The notes beneath the pieces are model-generated. The model was not told where the DNA came from. It saw nothing but the letters and a program-made list of their open reading frames with translations, and made no database searches. DNA of 64,000 nt from NCBI GenBank assembly GCA_041675205.1, contig JBAYUF010000002.1:68568-132567 (forward strand), written 5' to 3'. This DNA is from Patescibacteria group bacterium. Its GTDB lineage: Bacteria; Patescibacteriota; Patescibacteriia; GWA2-46-9. Of this stretch, positions 2,052-49,680 are shown piece after piece (position 1 is the stretch's first letter; every line of letters starts with the position of its first letter). Both the position numbers and the translations under genes were made by a program.

Positions 2052-3059
2052 TTACTGGCGTTTCGGTATAAAGGTAGCCGCGAAGGCGTTGGCGATGAAC
2101 GAGGTTACTTCGGATTCTGAAAAAATAGCATGATGCAATAAGTAGTTGAGTTCGGCGGCCAGATTTGTTTCATACATTTCCGGCCCATCAGTATTGATAG
2201 TCAATTTTACCCCGGCTTGGTGCAGTGTTTGATAGGCGCGGCGTTGCTCATTGAGGGTTTTAAATACACCAACTCGCATATTAGAAGTTGGACATACCTC
2301 TAAAGTGATGCCAGCTTCTTTGATGAGCCCCATCAGTTTTTTGTCTCGATAGGCATTGACCCCATGACCTATGCGTGACGGCGCTATTTTCTTAATGACG
2401 AGTTCAAGCTCTTTTAATGATCCCTCTTCACCAGTATGGATAGTAACGCCGAGCCCTTTTGCTTTGGCAGCACAGAACAGATCAACGTACTGCGCCATTT
2501 TAAATGCGGCTAGTTGTGGACCGGCAACGTCAATACCGATGACGCCGCGATGTTGATACTTGAGAGCTTTTTCGTAAATGATTTCGTTTTGTCGGTAGGT
2601 AAATTCTCGGTCAAGCATCAAAATGATGCCAGCGCGCACATCTGGATATTCGAGCATAGCGCGTTCCAGGCCACGAATAGAGGCATGGATAATATAGTCT
2701 AGGTCTCGTTCTCCGTTCCGATTGCGTTTCATCGGGTTGAAGCGAATCTCATGGAGTACGATATTGTGTGAGCGGTACGCACCACCGATAGTCTGGTGTA
2801 CGGCGGGTTCCATTGCCACTGGTGACGATTGAATGAGCTCGGTCCAGTGGTACTTCGCTCGATCGATTTCTTTGAAACTTTTGTAGTTTCGTTTTACCGT
2901 AACCATGTCTTCAAACTCCCAGTAGTTTTTCGTAGGGAGACGAATACCTTGATCGTGTGCGAGCGTCCACAATACAGCCGCATCGGCCGCGCCACCAACG
3001 TGTGTGTGAAGTTCAGCGAGGGGTAATTTTGCAAAGGGCGACGGTTTTTTTTCTGTCAT
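2052..3059 (-). CDS. add: adenosine/adenine deaminase family metal-dependent hydrolase
   Basis: 335 aa. HTHVGG metal-binding start and an INTDGPE motif typical of the adenosine deaminase fold. Lies between guaB and guaA. Confidence 0.65.
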   Translation of the reverse strand: MTEKKPSPFAKLPLAELHTHVGGAADAAVLWTLAHDQGIRLPTKNYWEFEDMVTVKRNYKSFKEIDRAKYHWTELIQSSPVAMEPAVHQTIGGAYRSHNIVLHEIRFNPMKRNRNGERDLDYIIHASIRGLERAMLEYPDVRAGIILMLDREFTYRQNEIIYEKALKYQHRGVIGIDVAGPQLAAFKMAQYVDLFCAAKAKGLGVTIHTGEEGSLKELELVIKKIAPSRIGHGVNAYRDKKLMGLIKEAGITLEVCPTSNMRVGVFKTLNEQRRAYQTLHQAGVKLTINTDGPEMYETNLAAELNYLLHHAIFSESEVTSFIANAFAATFIPKRQ

Positions 3060-4123: not shown

Positions 4124-4137
4124 GGGCCAAGTATAAA

Positions 4138-4169
4138 CGAAAACCGACTGTTCGCACAGTCGGTTTTCG
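4138..4169 (-). terminator. rho-independent terminator downstream of the PA14 protein gene, immediately upstream of guaB
   Basis: CGAAAACCGACTG-TTCGCA-CAGTCGGTTTTCG. The minus-strand reading is followed by TTTAT. Confidence 0.65.
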
Positions 4170-4180
4170 TTCGTGGGCTG

Positions 4181-39879: not shown

Positions 39880-40855
39880 TGGCCTGGCGCACTTTTTTCA
39901 TAGTATGCAACGCAATTTTTTCAGCATTTTTTGAGCCATTGCGAAGTGTCGTAAGCATTGCTCTTGGCCGGCTACGCAGATGCAGGAACTTTTTTTGAAA
40001 GTCTTCGAGCCCGACGCAGATGTCGTTCGCTAGTGTTTCCTTTAGCTCACTGTAGCGAATAGTTCCGGATTGCTGTTTTGCCCGAAATTCAGCGGCCACT
40101 TTTGGCGTGCTGAAAGCATCAAGCAGAAGGAATAGGTTGGCTACCCCAGCCGCCACTTCGTTTTTGTCTCCCGTGCCACTGTCTGTGACTGCTCGGGCGA
40201 TTTTTTTCTTAATGATTGCTGGTTCGTCGTCCAGAAAAAGGCAACCGGTCGGTTCGGACTTACTCATTTTACGGTTCGGATCAGTTAGGCTCATTAGCCG
40301 TGGTACGCTTGTGTAAAGTGGCATCGGTACGGTGAACACTGCGCCGTAGCGAGTGTTGAATTTTTTGGCCACGGTGCGCGTCAGTTCGAGGTGCTGCGTC
40401 TGGTCGTCTCCAACCGGGACGAGGTTGCCATTGTAGAGAAGAATATCGGCGGCCATCAAGGTGGGATAGGTGAACAGGCCGACGTTGGCGTTGCCTGGTT
40501 GCCGGGCGCTTTTATCTTTATACTGCGTCATCCGTTCTAGCTCACCCATGGGCGTTACCGTGTTCAGAATCCAAGCTAACTCGGCGTGGGCGGGAACGAA
40601 CGACTGCAAGAACAAGGTGCACTTTTTCGGATTCAACCCAGCAGCCAGGTAACTTGCAATGATATCTATGATTTCGGCTGTTTTTTCTTTTGTATTGTAG
40701 CTTTCTGTCAAAGCGTGCAAGTCAGCCACCATAAAGAGGCAGTCGTGATCTGTTTGGAGCGTAACAAAGTTTTTGAGTGCGCCAAGATAGTTACCGACGT
40801 GTAGTCGGCCAGTGGGCTGAATACCAGATAAGACCCGTGAGCGAATGGTAGCCAT
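39860..40855 (-). CDS. trpS: tryptophanyl-tRNA synthetase
   Basis: GIQPTGRLHVGNYLGA (HIGH region) and KMSKS. Confidence 0.9.
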   Translation of the reverse strand: MATIRSRVLSGIQPTGRLHVGNYLGALKNFVTLQTDHDCLFMVADLHALTESYNTKEKTAEIIDIIASYLAAGLNPKKCTLFLQSFVPAHAELAWILNTVTPMGELERMTQYKDKSARQPGNANVGLFTYPTLMAADILLYNGNLVPVGDDQTQHLELTRTVAKKFNTRYGAVFTVPMPLYTSVPRLMSLTDPNRKMSKSEPTGCLFLDDEPAIIKKKIARAVTDSGTGDKNEVAAGVANLFLLLDAFSTPKVAAEFRAKQQSGTIRYSELKETLANDICVGLEDFQKKFLHLRSRPRAMLTTLRNGSKNAEKIALHTMKKVRQAIGLPSR

Positions 40856-46234: not shown

Positions 46235-46257
46235 CCTTTATGTAAAAATTTTAGCAC

Positions 46258-46288
46258 GGCTGCTTCCTTGACAGGAAGCCTTTTTCTT
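46258..46288 (+). terminator. rho-independent terminator
   Basis: GGCTGCTTCC-TTGACA-GGAAGCC then TTTTTCTT. Confidence 0.7.
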
Positions 46289-46299
46289 GTTAAGGTGCC

Positions 46300-46516
46300 G
46301 CGTCGAGTACGGGTAGTAATGCGCTACTGCACTCGAAATGAAATAACATTTCCGGGGTTCTTATCTGGGAGCGACGAACGAACCACTACCCCTCCTAAGT
46401 GGGACAAGTAGTCAGCGAGTAGTGTGGTTAAGGTAACTACCAAACACCCCACTCGCTCCCAGGTAAGAGGTTCGGAAAATAAACAGCACCGACGTACGTC
46501 GGTGCTGTTTTGTTGT
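46300..46516 (+). ncRNA. candidate small structured RNA with its own terminator
   Basis: Nested long-range pairings CTGGGAGCGA...CACTCGCTCCCAG and AACCACTAC...GTAGTGTGGTT. Ends in the perfect hairpin CAGCACCGACG-TA-CGTCGGTGCTG plus TTTTGTTGTTT. No ORF longer than 60 aa. Confidence 0.35.
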
Positions 46517-46978
46517 TTGAGTTATTTTTTCTTGCACTTAAGGCTCGCTTTTTAGATAAGATTTTTATTACTCTTTTGCTTGCTTAAAAGAATAGAGACC
46601 AGTCCGCCGTAGGCCGATCCGCCTTTGGCGGAAAAATGGCACCCTCGCTTCGGCAGCTACGCGGTTTCTCGCAAAAGTTGCAGCACAGCCATAAACTTCC
46701 CTTCGCACACGCTCAGGGTCGAACAGTATGGCTGTTTCTCGCTGCAACTTTTCCTTAACCGCTGGGCTGCCTTTGCTATGGGGTTCGTGGGAGTCATATA
46801 AAAACTTTTTGAAAAGGGAGCGCCGCGGGTACGCTCCAGGTCGGTTGACCGGAAAACGTACCCGCGGCGGGTGCCATGTCAGGGTTGGATTCCCTGTTGA
46901 CACGAGTCAGCGATGCTGACGTTGTTGAAGAAATTCAGATGTGCGAAGCGACTGGAAGCCGCCCCGCTTGGTTCGGGT

Positions 46979-47446
46979 TCAGGCCTTCTTGTGGCTGTGG
47001 CCGCCTTTGTCGAGGATGCTGGCGGCTTCGTAGTTGTGCGAGTTGTTGTCGGTGCCGACCTTGGTGTCGATTCCGATGGATCCCTCCTTGTTGCGCACGA
47101 GCGCCGGGGAAATCGTCTTCTCGGTCTTCAGGATCGCGTTGGCGGTGCCGGTGCCGACCTTGGTGCTGGTCGAAAGCGCGGTGCCCTCCATGGCGTCAGC
47201 GATGTCGGCACGATGAGCCGTCAGCGCAATCGCAGGATCGTCGGCGGCGATGGCCGAGGTGAGGGCCGGCATCGTGGTCGTCTTGCCGGTGCCGTTCGGA
47301 ATGATGGCCGTGCCGGTGTTCCCGACGTCGACGGGAGCGGCGGCGATGGCCTGCAGAGCGGGGTTGCCAGCCGTAGCAGCCGGCGGCGACGAATACACCA
47401 GGAGTGCGGCGAGGAGGGCGAACCCTCCGTAACGGATCAACTTCAT
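46979..47446 (-). CDS. secreted Ala/Thr/Gly-rich low-complexity protein, high GC
   Basis: AAGGAG ribosome-binding site. Signal peptide MKLIRYGGFALLAALLVYSSPPAATA. Confidence 0.45.
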   Translation of the reverse strand: MKLIRYGGFALLAALLVYSSPPAATAGNPALQAIAAAPVDVGNTGTAIIPNGTGKTTTMPALTSAIAADDPAIALTAHRADIADAMEGTALSTSTKVGTGTANAILKTEKTISPALVRNKEGSIGIDTKVGTDNNSHNYEAASILDKGGHSHKKA

Positions 47447-47721
47447 GATGGAACTCCTTCTATTGTCTTCCGATTGTCATTGAACGTTTCGCCTTCAAGC
47501 TAGTTTCTCGAGGGAATCCCGAGCCTATATCTAGTATCTTGAGTGGCATCCCAAGTCTAGCTTCTTTTCTTGAAGACTTCCCGAATGGGCAACGATATAA
47601 TATAATTTTTTCCTTTTTTGTCAACAAATTTTCCGCAGTTTTAAATATCTAGGATTGACCTTTTGCCCTTCTTTTGCTTTACTATGCGGTCGCTTCAACC
47701 GTAGAATTTGTTTGCGACTAC

Positions 47722-47754
47722 TGACGAAACGTCGGTACATCAACCAAGGAGGGC
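47722..47754 (+). promoter_or_regulatory. conserved 5' element, copy 1 (hairpin GACG-AAA-CGTC + GGTACATCAACCAAGGAGG)
   Basis: Shares about 28 nt, with identical spacing to the start codon, with copy 2 at 47911-47940. Confidence 0.5.
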
Positions 47755-47758
47755 TATC

Positions 47759-47887
47759 GTGAACCGTCGCCGTGCACTCATACTCGTTCTTTTCGTCGCC
47801 GGGGTCGTGGCTCTTTTCGACAGCTACTCTGGCGCGTTCAAGGTTAACGCGGCAGGAAACTGCCGCGGGTATTCACTCAGCCGTTAG
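47759..47887 (+). CDS. candidate 42-aa secreted/membrane peptide (GTG start)
   Basis: AAGGAGG ribosome-binding site. VNRRRALILVLFVAGVVALF... Below the 60-aa cutoff of the ORF track. Confidence 0.3.
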   Translation: MNRRRALILVLFVAGVVALFDSYSGAFKVNAAGNCRGYSLSR

Positions 47888-47910
47888 GAGGTTTTTCGTT
47901 TCAACCCAAC

Positions 47911-47940
47911 CGACGGAACGTCGGTAGACAACTTAGGAGG
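47911..47940 (+). promoter_or_regulatory. conserved 5' element, copy 2 (hairpin CGACG-GAA-CGTCG + GTAGACAACTTAGGAGG)
   Basis: See copy 1. Confidence 0.5.
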
Positions 47941-47947
47941 AAGTCCA

Positions 47948-48397
47948 ATGAACGTTCGTTCCATTTTTGCCCTGGCTCTTACGGCGGTTGGTGTGATCGC
48001 CATCCTCCACAGTGACGCCGGAAAGTGGGCAGCGCCCGCGAAGCCGGTCGTTGCTGAAGCGGACTGCCCGGGCAGCACCCATGCTGTTCGGCACCACCAC
48101 CGCGAGGCCGAGGAGTACATCCTCGGCGGCGACGTTGTTCGGGCCATTCACGAGATCCAGCTGGCTTCGTTGTTCTCGTGTGACGTCAGCCCTGGCATCA
48201 GACACCTTCAGGTGCTGGCCTGGAACAGCCTCGCTCAGGCTCATTTCCAGCAGGGAGCTTGGCCGGACAATGGTCATGCACAGCAGGCGCTCGAGGAGAT
48301 TCGGCATGCGCAGCGACTTCTTACGATGGTGGCCGACCACGAATCTTCGTGGCCCCATTCGATGATCATCGACCACGAATCTTCGTTGCCACATTAG
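47948..48397 (+). CDS. secreted His-rich protein, high GC
   Basis: Signal peptide MNVRSIFALALTAVGVIAILHS. HAVRHHH and a repeated DHESS(W/L)PH C-terminus. Confidence 0.45.
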   Translation: MNVRSIFALALTAVGVIAILHSDAGKWAAPAKPVVAEADCPGSTHAVRHHHREAEEYILGGDVVRAIHEIQLASLFSCDVSPGIRHLQVLAWNSLAQAHFQQGAWPDNGHAQQALEEIRHAQRLLTMVADHESSWPHSMIIDHESSLPH

Positions 48398-48567
48398 CCC
48401 GTGCCCACCGGCCGCTCTCAATCTCGAGGGCGGCCGATACTTCTTTATATAAACTATTGACTTTGTGGCAGTTTTCAGCTAAATTATCGTGTTCGATTCC
48501 GGCTCGCACTCTAACAATAACTGCAGACAACCGCTCTGACATACGTTCAGGGCAAAGGAGACGCTAG

Positions 48568-49680
48568 ATGCGTCAGTTCTTCGTTCGTTTCCTTGGCGCC
48601 ATCTTGGCGTCCATCACCATGACCCTCGCTCCTGCGCCGGCTTCGGCTGGAGCGGGGAGTCAGATCGCATTGCTGTCCGAGTTTTGCCTCTACCCCGATT
48701 GCGGGGCGAGGCTTGCCTACACCTCTCATGAGTGGGGGTGGGCCAATCCGGCCACCCTCACCGAAACATTCGATCTCGGCCTCGACGACTGGGCGTCGGT
48801 CGGTGGTGCCTACTTCTACGGAAGCACCATCTACTCCGGTACGATCACCGCTGGCTTCAAGCCGGTGGTCGTGCAGCTCAACTACGTCAACGCCGCTGTT
48901 GACGGTGAGCTGCCCTCGAGCGACCTCGACCTTGCGTTCGAAACGTCACGCTGGCGGCTGTCGTTGGCGTGGGACCTGGCGTCCGTCGGCATCGATGGCT
49001 TGTCCATCGGCGTCATCGGCGTCCTGCCTGGAAGCGAGAATAAGGTTGGGATTTCAACCGAGATTCCTGACTTCGGCGACCTCGACCTCGTGAAGGCTCA
49101 CGAGGAACCCGGTTGGGACTTTACTCTCGGGATGCTCTACGAGATGGGCGAGCGCGATTGGCTGCGTTTTGGTGCGACGTTGAACGTCGCATCTTACGAC
49201 AGCAGCGTTGACGCGCTCGACCTCGACAGCGGTGAGGTCTACCGGACCAACTCCACGTCGAACCTCTGGTTCGGCCGGCTGGGTGCGACGGTACATCCGT
49301 TCGTGCCCATGGGCCTTGCCAGTGGTGAGTCCTCGTGGGACGAGTGGCTGCGCAAGGTGGAGATTTCAGCCGACCTTCGTGTCGTGAATATTTCCATCTC
49401 GGGCGAAGATACCATTCGCCCGATCGACGCCTTCTTCGGCGTCGATGTTCCCTTGCTCCCGAGGCATTGGAACCCGCTGGCGAAGTATGTTGAACTCGTC
49501 GGTGTCAGTGGCGTCGGGACCGATGGTAGCTGGGGCGCAGGCCTCGGCATCTACGGTCAAGGGCCGCTTCGGTGGCTGACCTGCGACACTATGTACTCTT
49601 CCCAGCCCGGGGGTGACCTCGGGAAGGATTTCACGCTGAGCGGCATCGGCTGCACAGCATCAATGCCGCTGCCTTTCTAG
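48568..49680 (+). CDS. secreted OMP-like beta-barrel candidate ending in Phe
   Basis: Signal peptide ...LAPAPASA. Alternating Gly/aromatic pattern. C-terminus ...ASMPLPF. Own TTGACT-17-TAAATT promoter. Confidence 0.4.
   Translation: MRQFFVRFLGAILASITMTLAPAPASAGAGSQIALLSEFCLYPDCGARLAYTSHEWGWANPATLTETFDLGLDDWASVGGAYFYGSTIYSGTITAGFKPVVVQLNYVNAAVDGELPSSDLDLAFETSRWRLSLAWDLASVGIDGLSIGVIGVLPGSENKVGISTEIPDFGDLDLVKAHEEPGWDFTLGMLYEMGERDWLRFGATLNVASYDSSVDALDLDSGEVYRTNSTSNLWFGRLGATVHPFVPMGLASGESSWDEWLRKVEISADLRVVNISISGEDTIRPIDAFFGVDVPLLPRHWNPLAKYVELVGVSGVGTDGSWGAGLGIYGQGPLRWLTCDTMYSSQPGGDLGKDFTLSGIGCTASMPLPF

Follow-up and report, generated by a model that had tools for sequence, protein, structure and literature searches.

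A duplicated stem-loop next to the ribosome-binding sites of two island genes in a Patescibacteria-group genome

Two short hairpins that lie just upstream of the ribosome-binding sites of neighboring genes in a Patescibacteria-group genome are homologous, and on the alignment evidence given below a chance match between them is ruled out. Each of them, as judged from the same comparisons, belongs to a duplicated module, about 120-145 nt long, that comprises an upstream box, the hairpin, the Shine-Dalgarno sequence (SD), the start codon and about 25 codons of a signal peptide or membrane segment. By comparison with the neutral sites of the same module, the hairpin is maintained by selection and hence functional, although gene conversion over a short tract could mimic this pattern. 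The reading favored here, held at somewhat less than even confidence, is that the element acts as a stem-loop in the sense-strand mRNA leader and affects stability, processing or translation.

The gene island and its duplicated module

The analysis covered a 64-kb stretch of DNA, referred to below as the window. The two hairpins belong to an orphan gene island of this Patescibacteria-group MAG (NCBI tags WC052_01790/01795/01800). The island spans about 3 kb, has a G+C content of 55-60% where the surroundings have roughly 50%, and is flanked by dprA/topA and by an ornithine-decarboxylase-like gene. It holds four ORFs, all of them with export-signal-like N-termini. The smallest, encoding a peptide of 42 residues (pep42), is absent as a gene call from the ENA and Logan annotations. 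It shares one reading frame with the next gene, which encodes a His-rich protein of 149 residues (His149), and a single TAG separates the two. The tail of pep42 is unique; within it, positions 47848-47867 form a GC hairpin of 8 bp capped by a GAAA loop. No full-length homologue of His149 was returned by either large protein search, and protein searches gave no homologues of the 155-aa protein. The sole relative of the island is L008, a Logan contig of 1531 bp (65% protein and about 79% DNA identity), which ends within the His-rich homologue, a C-terminal fragment, short of the region of the two hairpins. In the Logan copy L002, the 314 nt that could be aligned show no difference. The features of the island are the following.

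46481-46510, bidirectional: hairpin resembling a terminator, with the arms of hairpin copy 2 (ACCGACG and CGTCGGT) as its inner arms
46979-47446, minus strand: 155-aa ORF with an export-signal-like N-terminus
47690-47700, plus strand: upstream box copy 1, TCGCTTCAACC, identical to copy 2 at 10 of 11 positions
47719-47737, plus strand: hairpin copy 1, DNA TACTGACG-AAA-CGTCGGTA, RNA UACUGACG-AAA-CGUCGGUA, 8 bp including one U.G pair
47746-47753, plus strand: SD AAGGAGGG of pep42, read from the sequence, with the GTG at 47759 5 nt further on
47759-47887, plus strand: pep42, 42 aa, GTG start and TAG stop, from the ORF list and the codon-position comparison
47896-47906, plus strand: upstream box copy 2, TCGTTTCAACC, in a U-rich single-stranded stretch 3' of the pep42 stop
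47909-47925, plus strand: hairpin copy 2, DNA ACCGACG-GAA-CGTCGGT, RNA ACCGACG-GAA-CGUCGGU, 7 bp, Watson-Crick throughout
47935-47940, plus strand: SD AGGAGG of His149, read from the sequence, with the ATG at 47948 7 nt further on
47948-48397, plus strand: His149, His-rich 149-aa protein, predicted from its sequence to be secreted or membrane-anchored
48409-48436, plus strand: intrinsic-terminator-like hairpin closing the pep42-His149 unit, found by the terminator scan and conserved in L008
48533-48553, plus strand: separate hairpin abutting the SD of the 370-aa gene, of like architecture, with no detectable homology to copies 1 and 2
48568-49680, plus strand: 370-aa ORF encoding a beta-barrel-like protein, from the ORF list

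The homology of the two copies is supported by several scores. The motif CGACGRAACGTCGGTA matches the window exactly at 47911-47926 and with one mismatch at 47722-47737; its remaining matches have 2-3 mismatches and fall within coding sequence, for example at 40792 in a tRNA-synthetase-like ORF. When the -130 to +75 regions of all window genes were aligned locally with one another, the pep42/His149 pair scored 19, and none of the 1275 background pairs exceeded 17. A covariance model (R1) gave 61.1 and 56.5 bits to the two copies and 13.5 bits to the next-best site in the 64 kb. Likewise, a sequence profile built on both copies recovered them with E-values of 5e-24 and 1e-15, and nothing further below E=1. 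The sequence-only reading had reported two copies of an element at these positions, and these scores confirm both the copies and their common origin.

The claim that both copies lie at the same distance from their start codons also holds. The motif starts 37 nt before the start codon in both cases, the hairpin ends lie about 21 nt from the start codons (GTG 47759 and ATG 47948), and 8-9 nt separate either hairpin end from AGGAGG. The copies are 189 nt apart, that is 63 codons and in frame, and the pair of hairpins and the pair of start codons show this same spacing. This identity of distance is a consequence of common descent and is therefore not independent evidence of function.

The element had been delimited to 47722-47948, an extent that proves too short, since the similarity takes in the upstream box on one side and the first 25 codons on the other. 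In copy 1, additional sequence, 17 nt long when aligned by hand, is inserted between the box and the hairpin and contains the -10-like TAGAAT. The first 25 codons of pep42 and His149 are 49% identical with zero shift, a value reached by none of the in-frame controls taken from the 141 hydrophobic 25-codon segments of the window (mean 30-31%, maximum 44-45%). Beyond codon 25 the similarity ends, with 22% identity over 47834-47878. The 5' region and the leader peptide are thus homologous and the mature parts unrelated, as in a cassette of the upstream-homology-box (UHB) type; with just two copies, the module does not form a multi-copy recombining family.

Structure and conservation of the hairpin

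The stems had been described as 4-5 bp long and actually measure 8 bp in copy 1 and 7 bp in copy 2. The folding of both leaders, proposed earlier as a check, shows that each hairpin is stable, at -9.0 kcal/mol (z -3.2 against shuffles) for copy 1 and -10.0 kcal/mol (z -2.5) for copy 2. Each is the dominant local fold and leaves the SD AGGAGG unpaired, so that a stable fold stands beside an accessible and strong ribosome-binding site. Hairpins at or below -9.4 kcal/mol are found upstream of about 13-15% of the window genes, several of them being terminators of the preceding gene. The two copies share the 3' arm CGUCGGUA and both loops read RAA. Only three differences separate the hairpins: an A or a G in the loop, an outermost pair that is U-A in copy 1 and A.A in copy 2, and a C to U change opposite G. 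The last of these is the sole substitution in the seven shared stem pairs, and pairing survives it on the sense strand only. The sequences that follow, CAUCAACC in copy 1 and AGACAACUU in copy 2, contain no U-run; the two hairpins are therefore not terminators, nor does the terminator scan list them, and a terminator or attenuator was rejected. A CsrA-type site was discarded as well, the loop of copy 1 being devoid of GGA.

The case for selection comes from the coding part of the module. Over the 25 shared codons, identity at the first, second and third positions is 12, 17 and 8 of 25. Third positions (32%) are therefore at the level of random identity, which means that neutral sites have been randomized since the duplication. 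Against this background, 16 of 19 positions are identical in the hairpin and 10 of 11 in the box, with binomial probabilities at a neutral identity of 0.32 of 4e-6 and 9e-5, respectively. A hairpin conserved to this extent while third positions are saturated has been kept by selection or else by a very short gene-conversion tract. The same comparison bears on the small peptide. Codon positions 1 and 2 keep the hydrophobic export segment, which argues from the sequence that pep42 is a real coding gene, translated now or for a long time in the past.

The arms of copy 2 recur once more nearby. The pattern CCGACG-N0-8-CGTCGG occurs three times in the window against 0.06 expected, the third palindrome lying at 46487-46504 within the terminator-like hairpin, which brings the hairpins with these arms to three within 1.5 kb. 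To the eye, CAACC, a hairpin and AGGAG also follow one another in the leaders of two other genes, the 370-aa gene and the minus-strand 155-aa gene, and these leaders were considered as copies 3 and 4. They fail as such in local alignment (p 0.03-0.3), in the sequence profile and in the covariance models, and are regarded as sharing the architecture alone. The hairpin of the 370-aa gene can be followed in L008, where its seven pairs all survive one compensatory change (U-A to C-G) and two wobble changes (C-G to U.G).

Distribution of the element

Further copies were sought well beyond the island. None was found in the 64-kb window and 10 kb of host flank (left extension L075), where nothing exceeds 13.5 bits. 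At the gathering threshold, Rfam 15 recognizes two tRNAs only in the whole window, and it gives no match to copies 1 and 2. Plasmid and phage blastn searches returned no matches, and a viral motif scan produced two isolated ones, neither of them with any gene context. Protein-pattern scans of JGI metagenome contigs and GTDB species representatives detected no relatives of the island; a promoter-pattern scan of the JGI contigs yielded two matches, and the one inspected is an unrelated AT-rich contig. Homologues of the 370-aa protein are carried by high-GC deltaproteobacteria-like contigs, 3' of pstCAB-phoU, and are not accompanied by the element.

Among the GTDB species representatives, the pattern GACG-N3-CGTCGGTA-N6-10-AGGAGG was found as 61 single matches in 61 unrelated genomes, compared with about 90 estimated by chance. 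The best of these 61 pattern-matched loci, designated L070, belongs to another Patescibacteria MAG. A model for which copies 1 and 2 were the sole input gives it 36 bits, the next locus 26 bits and the rest 14 or less. L070 reads UACCGACG-GAU-CGUCGGUA, then 9 nt, then AGGAGGAAG, with an ATG 7 nt past AGGAGG, and this near-identical 8-bp hairpin precedes a 243-aa ORF of cytoplasmic appearance. In a search space estimated at about 1.2e12 positions, a score of 36 bits lacks significance; L070 was therefore rejected as a proven homologue and is a lead only. A sequence-specific recognition site common to the Patescibacteria, UACCGACG-NNN-CGUCGGUA placed 8-9 nt 5' of AGGAGG and serving an RNA- or DNA-binding factor or a copying mechanism, is a long shot. 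If it did exist, it would jointly explain why the hairpin was retained here, why it was reused in the terminator of 46481-46510 and why L070 has a near-identical one.

The sequence-only reading held that a motif found nowhere else and not conserved in related genomes would owe its similarity to chance. The motif is indeed absent elsewhere in about 74 kb and its GTDB matches are at chance level. To infer chance from this would be wrong, since homology of the two copies is demonstrated and selection has retained the hairpin.

Possible modes of action and related systems

Two candidate promoters precede copy 1 and were detected by a consensus scan.

47655-60 and 47680-85, plus strand: candidate promoter A, TTGACC, 19 nt, TACTAT
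47678-83 and 47702-07, plus strand: candidate promoter B, TTTACT, 18 nt, TAGAAT

The same scan shows no promoter-like site between pep42 and His149, and copy 2 therefore lies inside a transcript. The two genes are probably co-transcribed from one promoter at 47655-47707. Copy 1 starts 11 nt after TAGAAT. Promoter A has the better -35 box.

In the favored reading, a leader stem-loop of 7-8 bp would abut the 5' edge of the ribosome-binding site, its last base at -22 from the start codon, and would shield the mRNA of each cistron from decay that depends on the 5' end while keeping the strong SD unpaired. Hairpin 1 would stand at or near the primary 5' end of the pep42 mRNA, and hairpin 2 might become 5'-proximal for His149 by cleavage in the U-rich stretch 47890-47908. 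Such an arrangement recalls the leaders of E. coli ompA and papA and of B. subtilis aprE, in which a 5' stem-loop and a strong ribosome-binding site act as mRNA stabilizers. The likeness consists of a short stable stem-loop 5' of a strong SD that is not sequestered, with no terminator; provided that TAGAAT serves as the -10 box, it extends to the position of hairpin 1, which would then start 2-5 nt from the 5' end. Transcription from promoter B would therefore reproduce the classical arrangement of these three leaders. With promoter A, about 27 nt would precede hairpin 1 in the mRNA, more than suits a classical 5'-terminal stabilizer, and the model would be weaker. The present element differs from the three leaders in that the sequences are unrelated and in that one operon holds two copies. 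Stabilization of the ompA, papA and aprE mRNAs by a 5' stem-loop together with ribosome binding is the subject of papers cited in PMC3997798. The same-arm terminator hairpin 1.2 kb away is left unexplained by mRNA stabilization.

The element had been proposed to be a shared control site, acting on translation, by RNA binding or as a DNA operator. What stands is a shared cis-element, conserved beyond the neutral level and kept in the same register with the ribosome-binding site; between RNA and DNA the evidence weakly favors RNA. This leaning is derived from the single wobble change between the two copies and from four pairing-preserving transitions in the non-homologous hairpin of the 370-aa gene (roughly p 0.06). 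A DNA operator is considered unlikely. It would consist of palindromes of 17-19 bp bound by a dimeric transcription factor, with a promoter-proximal site and another 189 bp further on that would repress by roadblock or looping. In copy 2, two 7-bp half-sites indeed form a perfect inverted repeat around a 3-bp spacer, copy 1 comes directly after the -10-like TAGAAT, the third palindrome at 46487-46504 has the same arms, and the 189 bp from center to center make 18.0 helical turns of 10.5 bp each. This spacing is already accounted for by the in-frame duplication, however, and the sole difference between the arms is compatible with a wobble on the sense strand. Moreover, copy 2 has no promoter to control, and Pfam detects no DNA-binding domain in the eight ORFs scanned in 44.9-51.7 kb, which include those of the island and their neighbors. 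The lac and gal operators resemble the present pair in being two similar palindromes near a promoter, an integral number of helical turns apart; the present pair differs from them by the absence of a regulator gene, by a second site located between cistrons and by the wobble-type asymmetry of its arms. Binding at the RNA level was weighed as well. Ribosomal-protein leaders and phage coat-protein operators provide the models for a translational operator, in which a trans-acting protein would recognize the hairpin and co-repress or co-activate both cistrons. The identical 3' arm, the RAA loops and the way in which both hairpins adjoin the ribosome-binding site on its 5' side would suit such a protein, and there is a precedent in single-hairpin leaders adjoining the SD that bind protein, such as those of L31 (PMC7247131). 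Yet no candidate for such a protein is known, the SD and the start codon are outside the hairpin, only two sites exist in about 74 kb and neither copy is matched by an Rfam family, and this possibility is regarded as improbable too. The hairpin of the 370-aa gene resembles the Rfam RF03156 (L31-Firmicutes leader) consensus CUCUG...UCAGGGC..AAGGAG and shares with it a single hairpin directly 5' of the SD. Its match at 48534-48560 scores 25.5 bits, below the gathering threshold of 33.3, and the L008 orthologue has none; copies 1 and 2 give no match to this family even at E up to 10. Since the genes downstream encode pep42, the His-rich protein and the beta-barrel-like protein and not rpmE, the assignment was rejected.

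Other explanations dispense with a binding factor. The hairpins could be a relic devoid of function, their similarity left by the duplication or refreshed by a short gene-conversion tract; the entire module is duplicated, after all, and there are two copies only, in one island, of a motif enriched nowhere else. Identity of 8/25 at third positions as opposed to 16/19 in the hairpin and 10/11 in the box makes a relic doubtful at best, the more so as conversion must have hit two short separate patches and skipped the sequence between them, and as the single change in the shared stem pairs keeps the pairing. A small palindromic unit, mobile or repeated in the manner of REP sequences and landed by chance before two genes and in a terminator, would agree with the presence of the same arms in three hairpins within 1.5 kb and with the near-identical 8-bp hairpin before the SD in L070. 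Like REP and BIME sequences, the element lies between the cistrons of an operon and is an imperfect palindrome, rich in GC and about 20 nt long. Unlike them, it is not dispersed (no extra copies in about 74 kb, and GTDB species-representative matches that are single and at chance level), its register with the start codon is fixed, and it lies inside a longer duplicated block, the homology of copies 1 and 2 reaching far past the palindrome into coding sequence. This origin is thus very improbable. An integron attC site, a REP sequence proper or the end of a mobile element was rejected, there being no core sites or correctly placed GTAG, no integrase or transposase nearby and no dispersal. The 5' arm of copy 1 could finally pair with the 3' arm of copy 2, and vice versa, and loop out the entire pep42 cistron, forming a long-range processing stalk and possibly a site for a double-strand-specific RNase. 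A helix of 9 + 7 bp with a 3x3 internal loop is in fact the MFE and centroid structure of 47714-47965, yet it is no better than that of shuffled sequence (z -0.9). Any two copies of one palindrome are able to pair in this way, and co-transcriptional folding and translation of pep42 favor the local hairpins, which leaves very little room for such a stalk.

The duplicated module as a whole has a counterpart in Borrelia, where the ospE, ospF and elp genes have a common upstream region and leader-peptide coding part followed by unrelated mature parts. The likeness to the present module lies in precisely this division. The difference is that the copies described here are two, in tandem and in one operon, with no plasmid or prophage context and no sign of ongoing recombination. 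These upstream-homology-box families are named in titles cited in PMC10016077.

The feature is genuine, though local and rather ordinary. No described family includes it, and its kinds, namely a stem-loop leader adjacent to the ribosome-binding site and a cassette of upstream region plus signal peptide, are known. Its practical value is modest, a testable leader element and an annotation fix and not a new class of system. The evidence on pep42 amounts to a correction of the annotation, as its signal segment has diverged from that of its paralogue in the way a protein-coding sequence would. Should the favored reading of a sense-strand leader stem-loop be true, the hairpin would represent a small, cleanly delimited cis-element in a phylum that resists culture and whose post-transcriptional control is almost entirely undescribed.

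Arms of the leader hairpins and comparable elements in other genomes

The arms of leader hairpin 2 (47909-47925), the copy of the duplicated element lying 5' of the His-rich gene, recur in the window as the inner arms (ACCGACG and CGTCGGT) of a terminator-like hairpin, and ACCGAC and GTCGGT are also found in the stem of a second terminator (4136-4171). By pattern count, the window has three matches to CCGACG-N0-8-CGTCGG, where 0.06 would be expected. The elements considered here, within the window and in other genomes, are the following.

Hairpin-containing elements, in coordinates of the window or of the contig named
46481-46510: terminator-like hairpin, 13-bp stem with T-runs on either side
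2251-2306, minus strand, Patescibacteria MAG SCPX01000011.1: L070 hairpin locus
116-161, Acidobacteria MAG JADBLN010000016.1: L027 putative leader, 5' of an ORF 300 aa or more in length

The scan of GTDB species-representative genomes for a hairpin followed by AGGAGG returned 61 pattern-matched loci, of which L070 ranks first with 36 bits, a score that is not significant given the size of the collection. Its hairpin, UACCGACG-GAU-CGUCGGUA, is followed by 9 nt and then by AGGAGGAAG and the ATG of a 243-aa ORF, which is an unrelated gene; the leader of about 120 nt lies 3' of TTGACA, 16 nt and TATACT. At L027, GUGUCCUCC and GGAGGACAC form a 9-bp helix enclosing a CCGACG-AAU-CGUCGG hairpin, by which the Shine-Dalgarno sequence (SD) would be sequestered. 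This element resembles a leader of the SD-sequestering type; it seems to have no relation to the duplicated leader hairpin of pep42 and the His-rich gene.

Reading frame and repeats of pep42 and the His-rich ORF

Between 47759 and 47950, one reading frame is common to the 42-codon pep42 and the His-rich ORF, with an offset of exactly 63 codons, and the two in-frame ORFs are separated by a single TAG. The unique tail of pep42 contains another hairpin, located 18 nt 5' of its stop codon.

47848-47867: GC hairpin of 8 bp with a GAAA loop, CGCGGCAG-GAAA-CUGCCGCG

The stop codon itself is overlapped by an SD-like TAGGAGG (47885-47891), downstream of which there is no start codon. At the other end of the His-rich ORF, a 36-nt tandem repeat (48324-48395, copies 83% identical) encodes a 12-residue block, with DHESS-x-PH, twice at the protein C-terminus. 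In the alignment with the homologue carried by the Logan contig L008, a gap takes up all of the first repeat copy and the greater part of the next.

Gene calls upstream of pep42

About 680 nt (46235-46912) are devoid of any called gene and contain many long inverted repeats, such as a perfect 13-nt pair (46821-46833 and 46857-46869); a comparison of this stretch with Rfam at a permissive threshold produced terminator-like noise only. Two overlapping genes are called beyond it.

46913-47503, plus strand: 196-aa ORF, ENA gene call, with an R/G-rich, antisense-looking product
46979-47446, minus strand: 155-aa ORF, NCBI call, with an SD
47624-47597, minus strand: promoter of the 155-aa ORF, TTGACA, 16 nt, TATTAT

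The 155-aa minus-strand ORF is the more plausible gene.

The 370-aa gene and its upstream region

The intergenic region between the His-rich and 370-aa genes is conserved in L008 (180-366) to a degree no lower than that of the coding sequence on its flanks.

48400-48567: terminator, AT-rich stretch, then TTGACT, 17 nt, TAAATT

A hairpin and the SD of the 370-aa gene (48534-48560) resemble the Rfam L31-Firmicutes leader consensus with 25.5 bits for a gathering score of 33.3; this assignment was rejected, the gene context being wrong and the orthologue fitting no better.

The 370-aa protein (48568-49680) is predicted, at low confidence (pLDDT 56), to form an all-beta barrel, and the best structural matches of this model are the outer-membrane barrels OmpG, FadL and Bdellovibrio OmpA. 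Its homologues lie 3' of pstCAB-phoU in high-GC, deltaproteobacteria-like contigs. A barrel-like protein with such homologues is odd in a Patescibacteria genome, which suggests that the island was acquired by horizontal transfer.
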